Assembly (NCBI GenBank): GCA_963713705.1
Contig: CAVQMY010000027.1
Location: 89,669-153,668 of the forward strand
Length of the DNA: 64,000 nt
Reading direction: 5' to 3'
Source of the DNA: an uncultured Verrucomicrobiae bacterium
Lineage (GTDB): Bacteria; Verrucomicrobiota; Verrucomicrobiia; Palsa-1439
Translations under genes and position numbers: made by a program
Part shown: one piece after another, positions 12,702 to 23,867 of the stretch
How the letters are laid out: every line of letters begins with the position of its first letter
How positions within the stretch are numbered: position 1 is the first letter of the stretch
The notes under the pieces: generated by a model
The model's input: only the letters and a program-made list of their open reading frames with translations
Databases searched by the model: none
Told to the model about the DNA's origin: nothing

Positions 12702-12735
12702 TTGCGCCGCATGATACATTGTAGTACAATGTATC
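12702..12735 (+). promoter_or_regulatory. padR promoter (TTGCGC-17-TACAAT) overlapped by the perfect palindrome GATACATTGTA-G-TACAATGTATC, a putative PadR operator
   Basis: -35-like hexamer at 12702-12707, -10-like at 12725-12730 and palindrome at 12713-12735, all just upstream of the ATG at 12740. Confidence 0.65.
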
Positions 12736-12790
12736 TTCTATGAAGCGGGACGAGGTTGCGAAGAACCTGGCCACGGGGACGTATGATCTA

Positions 12791-13883
12791 TTGAGTCCTG
12801 CATAATATAGTTAGTATTTCACCACAGTTCCGCCTGCTTCCAGAAGGCGGCGATGAGCCCGGGGCGACGGCGCATCCGGCGCAGCGCCCGGGTGGCCATG
12901 AGGCTCAGTTCCCAGCCGTGTTGGGCGCAGAAGTTCGCCAATTCGTGCTGCTTGAGGTGGCCCCAGATGTACTCGGCGGGGTTCAGTTCCGGCGCGTAGG
13001 CGGGTAAGTATTCCAAGTGGACGCGCTGGCCCAGCGTGCCGATGAAGTCACGGACCGCCCGACTGCGGTGGATGCCGGCACCGTCCCAGACAATCAACAG
13101 TCGCCCGGGCAGATGGCGCAGCAGATGCCGCAGGAACTCGATGACTTGGGGGCTCTTGATGGCGCCGTCGAAGAGCTGAAAGTAGAAGTTCCACAGGGTC
13201 AGCCCGGCCACGACCGAGAACTTCTTCCAGTTGAAGTGGTGCTGCAGGACGGGCGTGCAGCCGCGGGGTGCCCAGGTGCGGACGCGGTGCGGCTGTTGGC
13301 TCAACCCGCTCTCGTCGATGAAAACGATCAGCCGGCCTTCGCGGAGCGCTTTTTTTTAATATCCGGCCAGCGCTGGCGCTTCCAGCAGCGGATCGCCGGC
13401 TCGTTGCGTTCCAAGGCGCGACCGACGGGTCGCTGGCAACTCCAGCCCAGCTTCTGGAGCAGGCGATAAACGTGATCGGCATGAAACCGCACCCCGGTTT
13501 GCCGTTCGATGAGGTCGGCGATGCGCGGGGCCGTCCACAACGGCGTGTCGTAGCCGAGGGCCTGCGGTCCCTGACGGAGTGCCAGTTCGATCTGGTGGAG
13601 TTGGGCGGAGCCGAGTCGGGGCTTGCGACCGGCGCGTCCGGCCTTCTTCAGGCCGTCGGTCCCCTGCGCCTGCCAGACGGCGTACCAGCGCCCACTGGAT
13701 TGGGCGCTGACACCCAAGCGTCGGGCGACGGCGGCCTTGCCGAGACCACGAGCGAAAAGTTTGGCCGCACGGAAGCGGCGCTGTTGGAGTTGGTCAAAGT
13801 CGCGCTTCAATCCTTTGAGGTGTCCCATACTACCTTCGACACCGCAACCCCCAATAGCGTTCACTATATTATACAGGACTCAA
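12791..13883 (-). mobile_element. IS630-family insertion sequence
   Basis: 21-bp terminal inverted repeats TTGAGTCCTG(C/T)ATAATATAGT with one mismatch. TA duplication at 12789-12790 and 13884-13885. Confidence 0.95.
12819..13828 (-). CDS. IS630 transposase (orfA HTH + orfB DDE joined by -1 frameshift at an A8 run near 13350)
   Basis: orfA ends WPDIKKKRSAKAG*. The -1 frame gives KALREGRLIVFIDESG...IVWDGAGIH...LPAYAPELNPAEYIW. Confidence 0.92.
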
Positions 13884-14080
13884 TAATTGTGCTCGACGTG
13901 TTGCGGGCCGGGCCGAACTACGGCTATGGCATCCGGAAACGGATCTTCGAGCGATCGAAGGGCACATTGAACTGGCTGGATGGCACGGTTTATCCCGTTC
14001 TTCGCCATCTGGAGAAGCAGGGCCTCGTGACAAGCCGTTGGAAAGGCCCAAAGGAGGGTCGACAGCGCTGTTATTACCGC

Positions 14081-15172
14081 CTCACGCCGCGCGGTCAACG
14101 GGTTTGGCAACAACAGCGCCGTCAGTGGACCGCCTTCACCCGCGCGATCAACGCCCTGCTCACTCCCTGAGACACGACCGCGACACAGTGGATAGTCGAC
14201 GAGCCGCGCTGCCCGACATCTAACGACCCCAGACGGGAGCTAATTCTGCAACAGATCGCGCGCGGGACGTGAAACCCGCTCACGTAAATCAATGTTTACC
14301 TCACTCCACGCGGCTTGCTGGAACGATAATACATTGCAGTGCAATGTATCAGACATGCGCCGACGGGAGCCACATGCGAGCAATACGGAGAGGAGTCGCG
14401 GCACACAAAAGGGGGATACATTGTAGTGCAATGTATCAGGCAAACATGGACAACAGTTCACACCAAGACACTCATCGGGAAACATCTGGGTAGCGGTTCT
14501 TGCAGTGGTCACCCTCTGTCTACCCGAGAGCTTGCGGGGCCGGTCAAAGCTTGCCACATTCCACGTGGCCACTGCTACGCCTCACGCCGCGCGGTCAACG
14601 AATTTGGCAACAGCAGCGCCGTCAGTGGACCGCCTTCACCCGCGCGATCAACGCCCTGCTCGCTCCGTAGCGCGCGACCGCGAGCCGGTCACGCGGTCGA
14701 TACGCAGCGCCGCCCGGCTCCTAGCGACCGCCGATGGGAGGTAATGCCGCAACAGATCGTACGTGCGACGTGAAACCCGCTCACGTAAATCAATGTTCAC
14801 CTCACTCCGCGCGGCTTGCTGGAGCGATGATACATTGCAGTGCAATGTATCAGATGCACATCAACGGAAGCCGGGTGCGAGCAATCCGGAGAGGAGTCGC
14901 GGCTCACAACGGAGTATACATTGTAGTGCAATGTATCAGGCAAACACACACAGCAGGTCACACCAAGAAGCTCATCGGGAAATGTCGGGGTAGCGGTTCT
15001 TGCAGTTGTCGCCCTCAGTCCGCCCGAGAGCTTGGGGGCCGGTCGATATTTGCCACGTCCCATGTGGCTGGCAGTACCGGCTTACGCCGCGTGGTCAACG
15101 GGTTTGGCAACAGCAGCGCCGTCAGTGGACCGCCTTCACCCGCGCGATCAACGCCCTGCTAACGAATCGCTG
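14081..15172 (+). repeat. Exact 500-bp-period tandem array: three copies of the padR 3' 80 bp separated by two diverged ~420-bp units
   Basis: Copies start at 14081, 14581 and 15081, and the last 47 bp of each are identical. The units carry ATACATTG(C/T)AGTGCAATGTAT palindromes at 14329, 14416, 14830 and 14916. Confidence 0.92.
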
Positions 15173-15310
15173 AGGATTTTGCCAGCTGGAGCGCCGGTCT
15201 GCTTCGAACTCCAAGCCTGCGCTCCAGCCTATAAATTCACGTTCACTTTTGTCAGATGACCTGGCGATTTGCTTCGTCGACAGATTCCTAATTCGCCGTA
15301 CAATTGAGGC

Positions 15311-16766
15311 ATGTTTCTGGAGCATCCATCGCTTCCGCCATTCGAGCCAATTCTCAAGCCGATTGCCCGTGCCGTTTTGAGGAAGGGAGTAGACGCGCTT
15401 TCGAGCAGGAACTACGGGTTCGACAATATTGGACACGATCGCAAAGCATTTGCGACTTTTATAAAGGGCTGTCACAAGGGCTATGATCTGGCACAGCGCA
15501 CGGTTGCTCAAACGGTCTTTCAGTTGCTTAACGATACGAAGCACCTCGAAACCACCTTGAAGCAGCTGCGGACTGGGAGACACGATCGGATAGCTGAAAA
15601 AAGAACAATTGCATGTATTCGAGTCTTAGAAAACCGGGTGCTAGTCTTACGCCGCCTTCAAGACTGCATTGTCAACATAGTTCTTGGTGGTAGAACTTGG
15701 CTTAATAAGCGGTTTGTCCTGGAACAAAGGATCAAACCCGTAGACCTCATTGGAACAAAGCTCGCCTTGGAGTACGCAAGTCGGGAGAACGAGACAAACC
15801 GTCTTAGATTTTCAGCAATAGCGGACCTTACTACTTATGTGCAAGTGGGCGATATCATACAGGTCGACTTTACACAACCGCCGGCTCGTTGGTCGATTAT
15901 TGAGCTAAAAATCCGGAAGCGTGAATTCGCTTTTGACTGAAATCTTGAACAAAGAAGAGAATTCTAGCCTAGAAAGGCTGCAGACTCTCAGTGCGAACGT
16001 TAGCCCGACAGCACCGCGACAAATTCGTCGGATGCAAATTCAGCGTTCCCGGATTCGTGAGATTGTTAACGCATACGAAGGCAAACCAGCAAAAGACCTA
16101 CTGACCGGTCTGGATTACCTGCAACACGAAACCGAGTTAGAAACGCAGAATTACGCGAGAACAATTGCTGGTGTGATGGAGCGAGCGCGCCGCGACGGAG
16201 CGGCAGCAAGCGTCGTTGACGAATGTTTGGTGGTCCAAGCCTTCTCAGGTTGTTCGCTTGGGACTGCAGTTTTTTATGCAAAATTCGGCGCGTTTGGGGC
16301 AGTGTCCGGCAAGATGCCTGATCCAAACTCCTGTGGCGAACAGGAGCTGGAGACGGTGATGGGAACGCATATCGTTGATCTCACCAGCAGCAATCTTTTG
16401 GCAATGGTTCAGCAATCAATTTTCACCTTCGAATTGAGTTTGGAAGACATGATGGATTTGCTCTTCCGCAGAGTAATCGTGCTTCACTTAAATGCTGATC
16501 GCTTAATCGATCTGGCAGCAAAAAAGGGAATGTCGCTCCGAAAGCTGAGCGCAAAGGAAGAGGCACAGCTCAGCCAAAGAATCGGCTTAACGGCCATCGT
16601 CCCTGGCATACCAGGTCTGCATCATAAGTACCGGAATTATGAGCAAGACATTGCTGGAGGCAGTTTTGCTCTCGTTCTCAATGAACTCATGAGGCCAGTA
16701 GAACTTCTGCGCTCCATGCAGACAACTGCTGAGGAACTAGAATCGAAAATGTCTCGCTCCAAATAA
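15311..16766 (+). CDS. Low-GC hypothetical protein with a PD-(D/E)xK-like motif, one frameshift at the A5 run near 15907
   Basis: Deleting one A joins ORFs 15311-15940 and 15921-16766 as ...DLTTYVQVGDIIQVD...IIELKSGSVNSLL... Confidence 0.6.
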
Positions 16767-16810: not shown

Positions 16811-18638
16811 TCACCCTTTCTTCTCAATTTTCGCCCAGGTGTCTTTCAAGGTGATGGTGCGGTTGAAGACGAGCTTTGGCGCTGGGGCTGGCGAATCGAT
16901 CTTGGAATCGGGTCGAGGGCGAAATAGGCCGAGGCGCTCGAATTGATAGCGGAGTTCCGGCTGGGCGTCGTTCAGGCTCGGCTCGCATTTGGCGGTGACC
17001 ACTTCCAGCGAGTGCGGGTTGAGGACGGATCTTGAAATCGCGTCCGTCCGTCGTCCGGCTCGGCCTCGGTGAACAGCCGGTCGTAAAGGCGCACTTCGGC
17101 GTCAATCGCGTGGGCGGCGCTACCCAATGGATCGTGCCTTTGACTTTGCGGCCGGCGGTCGGCGCCGCCGGTCTTGCTGTCGAGGTCGGCGGTGCAGCGC
17201 AGTTCGGTGATGTTGCCGGCGGCGTCCTTGACCACTTCGTCGCACTTGATGATGTAGGCGTATTTCAGCCGCACTTCGCCGCCGGGTTTCAGCCGGAAAA
17301 ATTTCGGCGGCGGCACTTCCATGAAATCGTCCTGCTCGATGTACAGTTCGCGGCTGAACGGAATCTTCGCGCTTGCCGGCGTTCTCGTCCTCGGGATTGT
17401 TGACGGCGTCCAGTTCCTCGACCTTGCCTTCGGGATAATTGGTGATGACCACCTTGATGGGGCGCAGCACGGCCGAGCCGGCGCAGGGCGCGTTTGTTCA
17501 GGTCCTCGCGGATGGCGTGTTCGAGCACGGCCACGTCGGTGAGGCCGTTGTATTTGGTGATGCCGATGTTGAAGGCGAAATGTGCGCAGGGCTTCGGCGG
17601 TGACGCCGCGCCGGCGGATGCCGCGAAATGGTGGGCATGCGCGGATCGTCCCAGCCGGTGACGAGCTTTTCGTTCACGAGCTGCATGAGCTTGCGCTTGC
17701 TCATGATGGTGTAGCCGAGGCTGAGCCGGGCGAATTCGTATTGATGCGGCAGCGGGCGCGGCAGGTCGAGGTTTTCCAGAATCCAGTCGTAAAGCGGGCG
17801 ATGCACCTCGAATTCCAGCGTGCAGATGCTGTGCGTGATGCCTTCGATGTAATCGCTCAGGCAATGCGCGAAATCGTACATCGGATAGATGCACCATTTG
17901 CCGCCGGTGTGATGATGGTCGGCGTGGCGGATGCGGTAGAGCAGCGGGATCGCGCATCCAGATGTTCGGCGAGGCCATGTCGATCTTCGCGCGCAGCGTG
18001 CGTGCGCCGTCGGGGAATTCGCCGTCCTTCATGCGCGCGAACAGGTCGAGATTTTCCTCGATCGCTGCGGTTGCGGAACGGGCTGTCCTTGCCGGCGTTC
18101 GGCGCGCCGCGATATTCGTCGGTGTCCTCCGGCGTCAGATCGCAGACGTAGGCCTTGCCCTTCTCGATCAGCTGCGACGGCGTATTCGTAAATCTGGTCG
18201 AAATAATCGCGAGGCGTAGAACGGCTCCAGCTTCTCGACTTTCGGGTGCCGACTTCGAGTTGACCGCGCGAGATAAAAATCCGGCTTGCCGTTGCTCGCT
18301 GACGGTTTCGGGCGTTTTGCCTTTCGGCTTGAGGCCCAGCTTGTCGTCCGCCCAGCCGCCGATCAGCCAGTTCACGTCCTCGATGATGGAATCCACGTAT
18401 TCGACGTCTTCCTTGGTCGGGTTGGTGTCGTCCATGCGCAGGTTGCAGATGCCGCCGAACTCGCGGGCGATGCCGAAGTTCAGGCAGATGCTTTTGGCGT
18501 GGCCGATGTGGAGGTAGCCGTTCGGCTCGGGCGGAAAGCGCGTGATGGATTTGCGGATATTTCTCTTCCGGCCACGTGTTCGGCCACGATGTCGCGGATG
18601 AAATCGGACGGCGGCGGCGTTGTTGTTTCGTTTGACAT
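16811..18638 (-). CDS. glnS: Glutamine--tRNA ligase with many frameshifts (probably sequence errors)
   Basis: Fragments in shifting frames: [96 protein letters not shown]. Confidence 0.92.
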
Positions 18639-18640
18639 AG

Positions 18641-18674
18641 AAAAAATGCAGGGGCAGCCCACTGTGGCTGCCCC
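18641..18674 (-). terminator. GC hairpin followed by a T-run
   Basis: GGGGCAGCC/GGCTGCCCC stem followed on the minus strand by TGCATTTTTT. Confidence 0.5.
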
Positions 18675-18729
18675 GTGCCATGCAATTGCGGCAGGCACGG
18701 GCCCGCCCTTGTGAACTGAACGGCGGTCA

Positions 18730-19181: not shown

Positions 19182-22100
19182 TCAGGAGCATCCCATGGAG
19201 TTGCCGCAGTTAAGGCACTTGTAGCAGGCGCCGTTGCGCACGGTAATCGCGCCGCAGTTGGCGCACGCGGGCGCGTCCTGCATGAAGTGATCGACGGTCC
19301 GGTTGAGTCGCTGCACGGCGGTCATCGCGCCGTGGTTCCCCGTCGGCCGGGCCGGTGCTTCACCAGTCTGTTCGAGTTCAACGACGGGTTTGTTGACAAT
19401 TCGTTTCTCCTGTTCCGCGACCTCTTTGAGTGGCAGTTCGGGTTGCCCGGCGTTCGGCGAATTGGCCTCGCGATAGCCGGGGATGAACTGGCAGCGCCAG
19501 CCAGCGGAACACGTAGTCGGTGATGGAGGAGGCGTTGCGGATTCCGGGATTCTTGGTGAAGCCGCTCGGCTCGAAGCGCTGGTGGGCGAATTTCTTGACG
19601 AGCGCCTCCAGCGGCACGCCGTATTGCAGCGCCATGCTGGTCAGCGTGCCGATGCTGTCCATCAGGCCGCCGATGGTCGAACCTTCCTTGGCCATGGTGA
19701 TGAACAGTTCGCCGGGCTGGCCGTCGTCGAACAGGCCGACGGTGAGATAACCTTCGTGGCCGGCGATGTCGAACTTGTGCGTGACCGCCGTGCGCGTGTC
19801 GGGCAGGCGGCGGCGCAGCGGGCTTGCCGGCCTCGGCGCGCAGCTGCGCCACTTCGGCTTCGAAGTTCCTTGATGCGCGATTTCGAGCGGAATCCAGCTG
19901 CTTGGCCGCGGCCTCTGTCGCCGCCTTCGTTGGTCTTCTTGGTGTTGAGCGGCTGCGAACGCTTGGAGCCGTCGCGATAAATGGCCACGCATTTCAGGCC
20001 CATCTTCCAGGCCTGCACGTAGGTGTCGCGGATGTCCTCGACGGTGCATTCGCTGCGGCATGTTGACGGTCTTGGAAATGGCGCCGCTGATGAACGGCTG
20101 GGCGGCGGCCATCATCTTCAGATGCGCCATGTAACTGATGCTGCGCTTGCCGCGATGGGCTTGAAGGCGCAATCGAACACCGGCAGATGTTCCGGCTTCA
20201 GGCCGCTGGCGACGGTCTGCGCCGTTGTCCTCGACATCTTCGATGGTGTCGAATTTCTCGATGTGCGCGATGATCGTGTCGATTTCCGTCTCGCTGTAGC
20301 CGAGGCGGCGCAGCGCATCCGGCACGCCGCGATTGACGATCTTCAACATGCCGCCGCCGGCGAGCAGTTTGTATTTCACCAGCGCGATGTCGGGTTCGAC
20401 GCCGGTGGTGTCGCAATCCATGAGGAAGGCGATGGTGCCGGTCGGCGCGAGCACGGTGACCTGCGCGTTGCGATAGCCGTGCTGCCGGCCGCGTTCCGAG
20501 CGCGCCGTCCCAGCATTTGCGCGCTTCGTCCTTAGATAATTGAATTCGCGGCTGGGCTGAATGTCTTCGACGGCGTCGCGGTGCATGCTGGATGACGCCG
20601 AGCATGGATTCGACGTTGTCCTTGCGCCACCGGCTTGCGAACGTGCGCGCAACGCGCGTCGCGATAACCCGTGAACGGCCCGATGTCGCCGGCGATTTCC
20701 GCGCTTGCTCGTAAGCGTGGCCGGTCATGATGGCGGTGATCGCGCCGGCCAGCGCGCGGCCTTCGTCGGAATCGTAGGGCAGGCCGTAGCTCATGAAGAG
20801 CGAGCCGAGGTTGGCAAAGCCCAGGCCGAGCGTGCGGAAGATGTGGGAATTTTCCGCGATGTCCTTGGTCGGATAGCTGGCGTTGTCCACGAGGATTTCC
20901 TGCGCGGTGATGAAAATGCGCACGGCGGCCTTGAACCGTTCGATGTCGAACTGTGCCGTCCTCGCGCTTGAACTTCATCAGGTTCAGCGAGGCGAGATTG
21001 CAGGCGGTGTTGTTGAGGAAAACGTATTCGCTGCACGGATTGGTGGAGTGAATCGGCTCGGTGCCTTTGCAGGTGTGCCATTTCTGGATCGCGCCGTCGT
21101 ATTGCATGCCGGGGTCGCCGCAGGTCCAGGTGCCTTCGGCGATTTTGTGGAGCAGCTTCGCGGCGTCCTTCTTTTCCAGCGGCTTGTCGGTCGGTGACGG
21201 TGCGCGTCCACCATTCCTTGCCGTCGAGCGCGGCCTGCATGAATTCGTCGCTGGCGCGCACGGAAAGGTTTTCGTTCTGGTACATGACGCTGCCGTAGGC
21301 GTCGCCGTTGTAGAGCCGTCGTAGCCCTGCTCGATCAAGCGCCCAGGCCTTCTTTTCTTCCTTCTGCTTGGCGTCAATGAATTCCTCGATGTCGCCGTGC
21401 CAGTCGCGCAGCGTGTTCATCTTGGCCGCGCGGCGGGTTTTGCCGCCGGATTTCACGACGTTGGCCACCTGGTCGTAGACCTTCAGGAAGGACAGCGGGC
21501 CGCTGGGGCGTCCGCCGCCGCTCAGTTTTTCGCGGCTGGAACGGATCGGCGTCAGGTCCGTGCCGGTGCCGGAGCCGTATTTGAACAGCATCGCCTCGCT
21601 GTAGGCCAGGTCGCATGATGTCTTCCATGTTGTCCTCGACGGACTGGATGAAGCAGGCGCTGCCCTGCGGATATTCGTATTGCGTGCTGGCGCGCTCGGC
21701 CTTGCCGGTCTGGCGGTTGTAAAACCAGTTGCCCGCGGCCGGAATTCTTGCCGACGCCGTATTGATGATACAGCCCGACGTTGAACCAGACCGGCGAATT
21801 GAAGGCGCCGTATTGGTTGACGCAAAGCCAGGTCAGTTCCTCGTAAAAAATCTCGCCGTCCGCCTTGCTGAAATAACCGTCCGCGATGCCCCAATCGGCG
21901 ATGGTGCGGCGAGATGCGGTGAATGAGCTGGCGCACGGAGGTTTCGCGCTCGGCGGTGTCGTGTTCGCCGTAAAAATATTTCGAAACGACGACTTTGGTG
22001 GCGAGCAGCGACCAGGATTTGGGCACCTCGACGTTTTCCTGCTTGAAAATCACCTTGCCGGCGTCGTCGGTGATTTCGGCGGTGCGCTGTTCCCATTCGA

Positions 22101-22248
22101 TCTGGTCGAACGGCTTGACCTTGGCGTCGCTGAACACGCGCGGCACCACCCACCCGATCTTCTTCGGCGGCGCCGGAGGAACAACTCGCGGGGTTTGGCT
22201 GGCGCGTTTGGCGCGCTTGCCTGGTTCGGTCGATACTGATGTGCTCAC
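19182..22248 (-). CDS. nrdJ: Class II (B12-dependent) ribonucleotide reductase with many frameshifts
   Basis: Fragments: [86 protein letters not shown]-terminal [26 protein letters not shown]. Start approximate. Confidence 0.92.
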
Positions 22249-22413
22249 TGCAGAATCCTTCTGGGTCAGCTTGTCCTTACCCGCAGAAAGCTCCCCCACT
22301 CCTTGCTTCAAATTGATCACTGTACCCTCCTCAAAAAGCTGGTCGGTTGCGACTTTTCGGCGGTCAACGTCGAGGTTGGAAACCACCGCTAATAGTGCGG
22401 GCGGACTATATGC

Positions 22414-22429
22414 ACCCCATATATTGTGT
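22414..22429. promoter_or_regulatory. NrdR box upstream of nrdJ (weaker second box possible at 22383-22398)
   Basis: ACCCCATATATTGTGT matches the acaCwAtATaTwGtgt consensus. The second CAC..GTG site lies 31 bp away. Confidence 0.7.
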
Positions 22430-22463
22430 TTCAAGCTAAAACTACGCCCGCGGTCGCTTTTCT

Positions 22464-23867
22464 TCAAACTCGCTGATTTCTAACGAACTTTCGCCGCTCT
22501 CGTTCCCGACATTCCAACATAATTGGGCAGCCGGTGAATGCCCATGCCGCCCGAATTTTGTCGATCAAGAACCGCTTGTAATGCGGCGTCAAACAACTCG
22601 CTTGATTTACGAATAGCCGAAACGTCGGCGGATGGGAAGCTTTTTGAAACGCATAGAAGATTTTAAATCTCTTGCCACCGGAAAACGGCGGCGGGTAGGC
22701 GTCGAGGGCGCGCATAAAGAGCTTGTTGAGCCGCGGCGTGTCGATATGCCGCCTCATTTCGACCTCGATGACGGAGACTTGTTCGAACAATTGATTCAGG
22801 TTCTGCCCCGTTTTCGCCGAGGCGAACAACACCGGCACCCAATCGAGGAAAAACAATTCCTTCCGTAACGCCTCCAAATACTTCTCGCGAAATGTCTGCT
22901 TCTTTTTCTTGCCCTGGCTCTCCCACACCCGGTCTTTCCGTTCCTGATCCTCGGCGAGGTCCCACTTATTCACGAGCACGATACAACCGCGCGCCGCCTC
23001 GGCAATCTGTCCCGCGATGGCCTTGTCCTGCCTCGTCACACCGGCGACCGCGTCGAGGACCAGCACGGCAATATCACATTCGCGGATGCTGCGCTCGGCC
23101 CGCATCAGCCCGAATTGATCGATGGACGAATTGATCTTGCCCCGGTGACGCAAGCCGGCGGTGTCGATGAGCAGATACGGCTTGTCGTGCACGGTGAACG
23201 GCACATCGACCGAATCCCGCGTCGTGCCGGGGATATCGCTCACAATCGTCCGCTGATCCTTGAGGATGGCGTTGATGAGCGACGACTTGCCGACATTCGG
23301 TCGCCCGACAATCGCAATGCGCGTCGGAGGCACCGTCTCCGGCTCGACCCCCGCCGAGAATTCTTCCGTGGCGGCCTCCAGCAGTTCCGAAACACCGAGG
23401 CCATGCACGGCGGCGATGGAGAACGTCTTGTCGAACCCCAACTCGGAGAACTCGGCGTCGGTCCGCGCTCGGCGGTCGTTATCCACTTTGTTGACCGCGA
23501 GAAAGATCTTCTTGCCGCTGGTGCGCAACTTCCGCCCGATTTCCTGGTCCAGCGGCACGACGCCTTCGGTCACGTCGACCACCATAATGATGGCCGTGGC
23601 CATTTCGATGGCGATTTCGGCCTGATGCCGTGTCGCGTTTGCCATCAGGTCACCGCTTTTCTCGTCGTCCATGAACGCGATGCCGCCCGTGTCGACCACC
23701 TCAAACGACTTCTCGCCCCACCGCGCCGTGGCCGTGACGCGGTCACGCGTCACCCCCGGCTCTTCATGCACAATGGCGATGCGCCGCCCGACGATGCGGT
23801 TGAAGAGCGTGCTCTTCCCGACGTTGGGACGTCCGACGATGGCGAGGATGTCGTGTGCTTTTTCCAT
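22464..23867 (-). CDS. der: Ribosome biogenesis GTPase Der (EngA)
   Basis: Two GRPNVGKS P-loops, DTGG/DTAG, NKVD/NKWD and a KH-like C-terminus. Confidence 0.96.
   Translation of the reverse strand: MEKAHDILAIVGRPNVGKSTLFNRIVGRRIAIVHEEPGVTRDRVTATARWGEKSFEVVDTGGIAFMDDEKSGDLMANATRHQAEIAIEMATAIIMVVDVTEGVVPLDQEIGRKLRTSGKKIFLAVNKVDNDRRARTDAEFSELGFDKTFSIAAVHGLGVSELLEAATEEFSAGVEPETVPPTRIAIVGRPNVGKSSLINAILKDQRTIVSDIPGTTRDSVDVPFTVHDKPYLLIDTAGLRHRGKINSSIDQFGLMRAERSIRECDIAVLVLDAVAGVTRQDKAIAGQIAEAARGCIVLVNKWDLAEDQERKDRVWESQGKKKKQTFREKYLEALRKELFFLDWVPVLFASAKTGQNLNQLFEQVSVIEVEMRRHIDTPRLNKLFMRALDAYPPPFSGGKRFKIFYAFQKASHPPTFRLFVNQASCLTPHYKRFLIDKIRAAWAFTGCPIMLECRERERRKFVRNQRV

Follow-up and report, generated by a model that had tools for sequence, protein, structure and literature searches.

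We analysed a 64,000-nucleotide stretch of DNA (the window) from contig C27 of G000, a 4.4-Mb metagenome-assembled genome of an uncultured Verrucomicrobiae bacterium that is 77% complete. The window carries padR, a gene for a PadR-family regulator, and at its 3' end a tandem array with a period of 500 bp. Tandem Repeats Finder calls a single array of 2.2 copies that spans 14075-15160 (84% matches, score 1535), and a repeat search places three copies at 500-bp spacing (14078/14578/15078) with unit bodies that are 83-85% identical. The period opens with the last ~86 bp of padR. The direct repeats are built from this duplicated gene end, present as three ~86-bp tails, as would be expected of an element that integrates into the 3' end of a gene. 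The features of the locus are collected in Table 1.

Over 80 bp counted from 14081, 14581 and 15081, the tails differ pairwise by 3, 3 and 4 substitutions, every one of them inside the first 33 bp. All three tails share their final 47 bp (CAGCGCC...CCCTGCT), a sequence with no other occurrence in the 4.4-Mb assembly. Each tail ends in the padR frame, with LLTP-TGA, LLAP-TAG and LLTNR-TGA, respectively. An initial annotation of the window had described the last 80 bp of padR as recurring every 500 bp with few substitutions, an identical final 47 bp and three different ends and stop codons; both repeat searches and the sequence itself bear this description out, and the homology to padR starts ~6-12 bp further left than had been stated, at GCTAyTACC (codons Y-Y-R-L-T).

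The product of padR matches the PadR winged-helix domain (PF03551, E = 5e-22, with a score of 78 bits where the cut-off is 27). A full-length homologue from the related genome G014 aligns with LmrR (3F8B/3F8C, residues 5-107), from which it follows that the repeated tail codes for the entire C-terminal helix. In G000 itself padR, the regulator whose presumed operators fill the array, is disrupted: a 1093-bp IS630-family element, with a transposase split across two frames (13328-13864 and 12819-13304), splits the gene after codon 17 (ATG at 12740). Because padR is split in this way, the array probably survives as a relic on which little selection acts.

Each unit runs from a tail through spacer A (~158 bp), a 21-bp perfect palindrome, spacer B (66 bp), a second palindrome and block X (~138 bp), which terminates in a small hairpin (CCACGT-N3-ACGTGG) adjoining the next tail. 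A palindrome together with B forms an 87-bp sub-repeat that is present in 1, 2 or 3 copies in relatives, and spacer A is exchanged for another spacer in one related contig (L065) and for a 2.7-kb insert in a second (L064). The first spacer, A1, holds ACGTGA-N7-TCACGT at 14266-14285 and the -35-like hexamer TTGCTG 8 nt upstream of the first palindrome. The conserved blocks named in the initial annotation (GACGTGAAACCCGCTCACGT, CGGAGAGGAGTCGCGGC and GGGTAGCGGTTCTTGCAGT) are real; each unit has one copy of every block, and the rest of the genome has none.

Table 1 Features of the padR locus, with positions in the window.
Feature	Position	Strand	Basis or context
pal0, 21-bp palindrome ATACATTGTAGTACAATGTAT, presumed PadR operator	12714..12734	.	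overlaps TACAAT -10-like hexamer; ends 5 nt before padR ATG
padR 5' fragment (MKRDEVAKNLATGTYDL), severed from the remainder by the insertion sequence	12740..12790	+	matches N-termini of full-length PadR homologues
IS630-family insertion sequence; inverted repeats TTGAGTCCTG / CAGGACTCAA; TA target duplication 12789-12790, 13884-13885	12791..13883	-	Pfam HTH_33, HTH_32, DDE_3
padR remainder (IVLDVLRAGPNYGYG...ALLTP; stop 14168-14170), PadR-family LmrR-like single-domain regulator	13886..14170	+	Pfam PF03551
Tail 1, coding copy; C-terminal helix YRLTPRGQRVWQQQRRQWTAFTRAINALL	14075..14160	+	repeat finding, sequence reading, LmrR alignment
A1, variable spacer, unit 1	14171..14328	+	five-unit alignment, 65-80% identity
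pal1, unit 1: ATACATTGCAGTGCAATGTAT	14329..14349	.	palindrome search
B1, 66-nt spacer between palindromes, unit 1	14350..14415	+	alignment
pal2, unit 1: ATACATTGTAGTGCAATGTAT	14416..14436	.	palindrome search
X1, conserved non-coding block; end hairpin CCACAT-TCC-ACGTGG 14554-14568	14437..14574	+	homologous to sequence after padR downstream palindrome in single-tail relatives
Tail 2, orphan padR 3' end, LLAP-TAG	14575..14670	+	repeat finding, sequence reading
Unit 2 body: A2, pal1' (14830-14850), B2, pal2' (14916-14936), X2	14671..15074	+	alignment to unit 1
Tail 3, orphan, LLTNR-TGA; shortened form of ancestral ...ALLNPPSRHSxNR found after the last tail in relatives	15075..15173	+	sequence comparison
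Low-GC (51%) cargo, two overlapping ORFs of 209 + 281 aa; context, outside the array	15311..16766	+	no Pfam or PADLOC match

The open reading frames (ORFs) of the units have no Pfam match. X was rejected as coding sequence: its variation shows no 3-periodicity, it has no conserved frame, and in G014 a TAG lies directly before the orphan tail. Shuffle-calibrated local alignments of the unit with the padR body and upstream region gave p = 0.06-0.87, with no homology beyond the palindrome, and the palindrome was also the sole match in the units for an nhmmer profile built from 14 padR bodies. On these grounds X or the spacers as decayed padR were rejected. The initial annotation was thus right that the units hold no convincing ORF and that their resemblance to the padR body and the region upstream of it is limited to the palindrome.

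Native origin and copy number of the units

We compared the locus across the genus in 18 species genomes, all metagenome-assembled genomes of uncultured Verrucomicrobiae, together with metagenome, JGI and Logan contigs. In the sister species G007 and G009, a palindrome and then X directly follow a full-length padR (...ALLNPPSRHSxNR) at a gap of 31-100 bp, and this X is ~78% identical to that of the units. Because palindrome and X follow padR directly in these single-tail genomes, we read them as the native downstream region of padR rather than as foreign DNA; the foreign content expected of an integrative element was not found.

The unit is confined to its locus. Profiles of A, B and X (nhmmer) have no match in G000 outside the padR locus, genome-wide searches with the unit and its blocks and two viral-contig scans gave no match outside it, and a metagenome scan with a 20-mer from X returned one true locus and 24 unrelated matches. 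A dispersed mobile element was rejected because the unit and its blocks are confined in this way. Native copies that lie head to tail and are absent elsewhere in the genome are as expected for a tandem segmental duplication.

Two unit copies are present in G000 and one each in G014, G008 (and the metagenome contig L039) and G001, the last with the palindrome-B sub-repeat triplicated. G007, G009 and G017 have palindrome and X without a second tail. G010 has neither the unit nor palindrome and X, and its PadR protein, 95% identical to that of G014, retains the long ancestral C-terminus. The JGI contig L065 shows a different spacer and one palindrome, and the JGI contig L064 has 2.7 kb between two tails, including a gene for a 580-aa multi-pass membrane protein. 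The tail-to-spacer and X-to-tail junctions are the same in both G000 units, G014, G008/L039, G001, L064 and L065, and therefore the X-to-tail joint arose once. Variation in whole units (0, 1 or 2) with identical junctions is again what tandem segmental duplication predicts, and it supplies the empty-site and copy-number variants that the initial annotation had suggested looking for. Approximately 30 other padR loci show no duplicated tail.

The same comparison bears on an assembly artefact, in which one unit would have been wrongly duplicated in a long-read metagenome-assembled genome. The incompleteness of the assembly and the frameshifts in many housekeeping genes of the window (glnS, ribonucleotide reductase) are in keeping with such an error. 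On the other hand, the units differ at 16-24% of positions plus indels, beyond what an assembler would invent, and the unit architecture recurs in four sister species or metagenome contigs that were assembled independently, so that the array is almost certainly not an artefact.

Remnants of padR with other breakpoints also occur. In the Logan contig L067 (SRR28211871_139556; 530-560) an otherwise complete padR has a single interruption, the 19-bp hairpin from the end of X (TTTACCACGTTTCACGTGG) with one extra C, exactly at the left boundary of the tail repeat, giving a frameshifted 125-aa product; this hairpin is an illegitimate deletion scar. G007 (L009, G007:C2; reverse-complemented 128-285) has a second promoter, palindrome and first 42 padR codons upstream of the thioredoxin gene. 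This fragment is 97% identical to G000 padR over 62 nt, as against 89% for the full copy of G007, and the adjoining thioredoxin gene is unusually diverged (64% identity to that of G000). G015 has a split padR. The breakpoints in G007, L067 and G015 are unlike those of the units.

Palindromes as presumed PadR operators

PadR regulators of the LmrR type, which consist of a single domain, repress their own promoter via a palindromic operator of the type ATGT-N8-ACAT. The system described here resembles them in its PadR Pfam match, in the whole-length alignment of the homologue and in a 21-bp palindrome (ACAT...ATGT) that lies over the promoter. It differs in having a second palindrome after the gene, up to four more in the array, and inner 4 bp that vary by paralogue; binding by PadR is here deduced from sequence.

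Relatives provided ~30 loci with padR orthologues or paralogues. An ATAC-N4-N5-N4-GTAT palindrome usually lies 26 nt before the start codon there, and many of these loci have a second palindrome of the same type ~40 bp after the stop. The inner 4 bases (ATGG, CTAG, ATTT, ATTG) track the padR paralogue, and a fifth type, CTTC, flanks a 50%-identical padR paralogue on C19 of G000 (C19:69004-69406). The five types thus track PadR paralogues of 50-95% identity, as expected of an operator that covaries with its regulator. This covariation suggests that the palindrome is the cognate PadR operator and that the array carries four extra presumed operators.

The right arm of the palindrome contains TACAAT or TGCAAT ~9 nt before the padR ATG, which suggests a near-leaderless, self-repressed padR promoter; this is read from the sequence, and a sigma-70 consensus scan found no promoter at the palindromes. 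In its 4.4 Mb G000 holds 17 palindromes of the ATAC-N4-N5-N4-GTAT form, compared with 4 when the genome is shuffled, and 5 of the 17 are at the padR locus. Because there are just 17, they indicate a small regulon and not a repetitive extragenic palindromic (REP) family. A palindrome of the REP, bacterial interspersed mosaic element (BIME) or integron-like kind was rejected, the copy number being too low and the form wrong.

At loci with units, the upstream palindrome and most unit palindromes are of the ATTG type, those in the units of G008 being ATTG/ATGG hybrids, whereas the palindrome after the last tail is of the ATGG type in G008, G001, L065 and L064. Many loci with a single module have palindromes of one type on both sides of the gene (ATGG, CTAG, ATTT, CTTC). 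The change from ATTG upstream and in the units to ATGG after the last tail therefore places the joint of two module types at that tail. If an element had been inserted into a resident padR, the upstream and post-last-tail palindromes would be expected to match, and the observed pattern contradicts this, in a way that is suggestive, not decisive.

Probable recombination in the padR tail

The bodies of the two G000 units are 76-80% identical in A, B and X, and units of other species are equally close to each of them or closer. A maximum-likelihood tree of the units is a star in which the two are not sisters. This phylogeny was set aside as evidence of separate origins for the two units, the star giving no resolution.

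The orphan tails present a different profile. Variable sites among six orphan tails are distributed 6 : 2 : 20 over codon positions 1 : 2 : 3 (chi-square against uniform, p ~7e-5), and within G000 6 of the 7 tail differences are synonymous, the remaining one changing V to I. Zero differences in 47 bp at ~20% unit-body divergence have a probability of ~1e-5 under neutral decay. Because of the third-position bias, the synonymous differences and the 47-bp identity, the orphan tails are not in neutral decay and appear to have been coding until recently, or to have been overwritten from the coding copy. Template and variable repeats of a diversity-generating retroelement were also considered and dropped, as there are few tail differences and no reverse transcriptase among the ORFs near the array.

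Synonymous divergence between G014 and G010 is 0.32 in padR versus 0.15 in the adjacent thioredoxin gene (trx), and between G000 and G007 it is 0.25 in padR versus 0.60 in trx. These discordant values indicate that the padR locus recombines between species. In G000 the tails are identical over their 3' 47 bp, in G014 over their 5' 46 bp, and in G008 over no long tract (~77% identity). The stretch of identity thus shifts between genomes, and a fixed crossover core common to all copies of an attachment site was not found.

In tandem segmental duplications, copy number shifts by unequal homologous recombination and the repeats evolve in concert. The array is like them in its head-to-tail native repeats, in the gain and loss of whole units, in its patchy identity tracts and in having no dedicated enzyme nearby. 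It is unlike a recent in-situ tandem duplication in combining ~20% divergence of the units with near-identity of the ~86-bp tails, whose differences are synonymous. This contrast points to recombination of diverged alleles, or to repeated orphaning of a coding tail, and not to one recent in-situ duplication. The initial annotation had considered a single old tandem duplication a poor fit, and a simple recent duplication in situ does not account for unit divergence at the interspecies level next to near-identical tails that differ almost exclusively at synonymous sites.

We therefore consider it likely that the units are not mobile elements but padR modules truncated at the 5' end, each consisting of a tail with native operator and X, and that unequal or homologous recombination in the tail stacked them. 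The ancestral module would have four parts: an operator palindrome over a near-leaderless promoter, padR, the same palindrome ~40 bp after the stop, and X. A rearrangement in one lineage would have fused X, at its end, with the final ~86-95 bp of another copy of padR, the segment for the C-terminal helix, so that two direct-repeat tails came to lie around one unit. With two tails in place, homologous unequal crossing-over inside them may add or remove whole units, the partners being sister chromosomes or DNA incoming from a related lineage.

G000 would have gained its second, already diverged unit probably by exchange with a diverged allele, and G010 looks like a product of unit loss. Each event would turn a formerly coding tail into an orphan, and for this reason the orphan tails would still resemble coding sequence. 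Conserved coding sequence ends with the tail, and a highly variable slot follows. From these patterns we infer a crossover of the RecA type rather than a site-specific one, and an origin of the second unit in another lineage. Of the interpretation in the initial annotation, recombination inside the repeated tail is thus retained, on the unit variants and the tail pattern, and discrete mini-elements are not, given the native DNA and the lack of a tyrosine recombinase near padR among the matches listed.

Several points weigh against this explanation. The first X-to-tail junction requires a one-off illegitimate event whose course is not reconstructed, and sequence alone does not separate a homologous from a site-specific crossover; an integrase may act in trans, as at least 40 PF00589 matches lie elsewhere in G000. 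Unit bodies are 76-88% identical between species, compared with 75-81% nucleotide identity for a neighbouring coding gene, and this conservation could reflect function, of X or of the operator pairs, or recent spread instead of a relic. The 2.7 kb of cargo between the two tails of L064 gives that locus a cassette-like look. Finally, ATTG and ATGG differ by one base per half-site, which weakens the argument from palindrome types and leaves it suggestive, not decisive.

Islands and cis-mobilizable elements (CIMEs) integrate at the 3' ends of genes and accrete in tandem, for example ICESt1/CIME at fda in Streptococcus thermophilus. The array shares with them a gene 3' end duplicated around each unit, a stop codon that is kept, tandem stacking and units that lack an integrase. 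It departs from them in having no integrase at the site in relatives (among the matches listed), native content, no fixed core and contrary palindrome types.

On this model, close to the tiny cargo-less integrative elements proposed in the initial annotation, the units would be non-autonomous mini-elements whose attachment site (attP) carries a padR 3' end, integrated by a tyrosine or serine recombinase encoded elsewhere and accumulating in tandem. Such elements would explain the direct repeats around each unit with a stop codon restored by each, the occupied and empty alleles of varying copy number, orphan tails that look recently coding, the cargo of L064, and two units as diverged as between species, as if separately acquired. 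At least 40 PF00589 matches elsewhere in G000, among the matches listed, also provide many tyrosine recombinases. However, none lies near padR on the padR contigs of the 18 genus genomes, among the matches listed (serine recombinases were not searched for), and no site-specific recombinase was seen in the gene contexts of seven metagenome or Logan loci.

Mini-elements are further at odds with the palindrome and X that are native downstream of padR in single-tail genomes, with the lack of unit copies at other sites or in viral contigs, and with the ~30 other padR loci that have no tail duplication. The upstream palindrome agrees in type with the units and not with the palindrome after the last tail, the identity tract differs among G000, G014 and G008 with no fixed core, and padR remnants have other breakpoints. 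We consider mini-elements unlikely, and the proposal of the initial annotation did not survive in view of the native palindrome and X, the lack of a nearby tyrosine recombinase among the matches listed and the lack of a second site.

A broader and quite improbable variant supposes that Verrucomicrobiae have an integron-like cassette platform whose dedicated attachment site is the segment for the padR C-terminal helix and which is served by a recombinase in trans. Its cassettes, cargo-bearing or empty, would end in palindrome and X, and each capture would orphan the previous tail and bring PadR operators, so that captured cassettes would come under the operators they carry. Like integron cassette arrays, the locus has a variable slot and cargo genes parted by repeated palindromic modules. 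Unlike them, it has short and perfect palindromes, where attC sites are imperfect and 57-141 bp long, no integron integrase nearby, and a unit boundary that is a gene tail, not a palindrome.

Finally, each unit might encode a small or structured RNA under PadR control, namely X, with transcription starting at a palindrome promoter and with the array kept for useful RNA copies, an idea that is compatible with, and not exclusive of, stacking by recombination in the tail. The -10-like hexamers in the palindromes (TACAAT / TGCAAT), the conserved TTGCTG before the first palindrome, the position of X always directly 3' of a palindrome, and its somewhat better conservation (78-88%) than that of spacer A (65-80%) are consistent with it. 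However, Rfam gave no match at E <= 1, and in an RNAalifold consensus of 8 X copies none of 25 pairs showed a compensatory change and the covariation term was unfavourable. X as a structured RNA thus has no support from Rfam or from RNAalifold on both strands, and the structured RNA cassette of the initial annotation is not borne out.

In addition, X is cut by cargo at differing points in L071 and G007, and the hairpin GACGTGAAACCCGCTCACGT in the A region is broken in G008 and G001, whose homologues show no compensatory changes preserving the pairing. Together with the failure of the consensus scan to find a promoter at the palindromes, these results make an RNA gene array very improbable.

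If stacking by recombination is the true history, the array would be a record of turnover in the variable slot between padR and glnS. Incoming padR modules would recombine in the tail, where conserved coding sequence gives way to cargo, and orphan tails would be left behind. The recombination itself is ordinary, and the record would be of use in reading such hotspots in uncultured Verrucomicrobiae. A more promising lead than the array is the family of PadR operator types. Small LmrR-like PadR regulators whose operators appear to be typed by four inner base pairs could be a natural and tractable set of orthogonal repressor-operator pairs, and PadR operators flanking accessory cassettes (toxin-antitoxin, restriction, TIR and ATPase genes) are a possible marker for accessory-gene slots.

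Accessory genes and the padR-glnS slot

Palindromes accompany accessory genes at other loci as well. In L072 (G009:C10:162000-172000), between 3900 and 7500, palindrome-carrying direct repeats of 175 nt flank small accessory cassettes, whose ORF translations read as an AbrB-type antitoxin with a PIN toxin, a 240-aa restriction-enzyme-like product and two Vsr-like fragments. L073 and L076 hold clusters of differently typed palindromes 44-66 bp apart. At three further sites of G000 (C8:78444-79951, C35:13603-15220 and C46:13256-14247) palindromes lie ~100-300 bp from ORFs that read as transposase-like in translation, as at padR; chance or a shared intergenic preference could account for this proximity.

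Downstream of the slot, glnS (glutaminyl-tRNA synthetase, 16811-18681) and the gene for a B12-type ribonucleotide reductase (19378-22467) are each broken over several frames. The breaks may be long-read indel errors or real pseudogenes, and they bear on how far any single frameshift here can be trusted.

A literature search on PadR and defence hotspots returned nothing relevant. The cargo of the padR-glnS slot differs by genome. In G000 a promoter-like TCGACA-16-TACAAT at 15277-15304 precedes the pair of 209- and 281-aa ORFs. The slot holds a methyltransferase-like ORF in G010 (from sequence reading), a transposase-like ORF in G014 (from its translation), a TIR protein in L069 and an AAA_15/AAA_21 ATPase in L064. 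In the last contig (Ga0455671_0048141; 2577-5330) the gene for the 580-aa membrane protein lies on the opposite strand between the tails, the insert is flanked by repeats of the pre-palindrome spacer and palindrome, and the AAA_15/AAA_21 ATPase gene pair follows the second tail.

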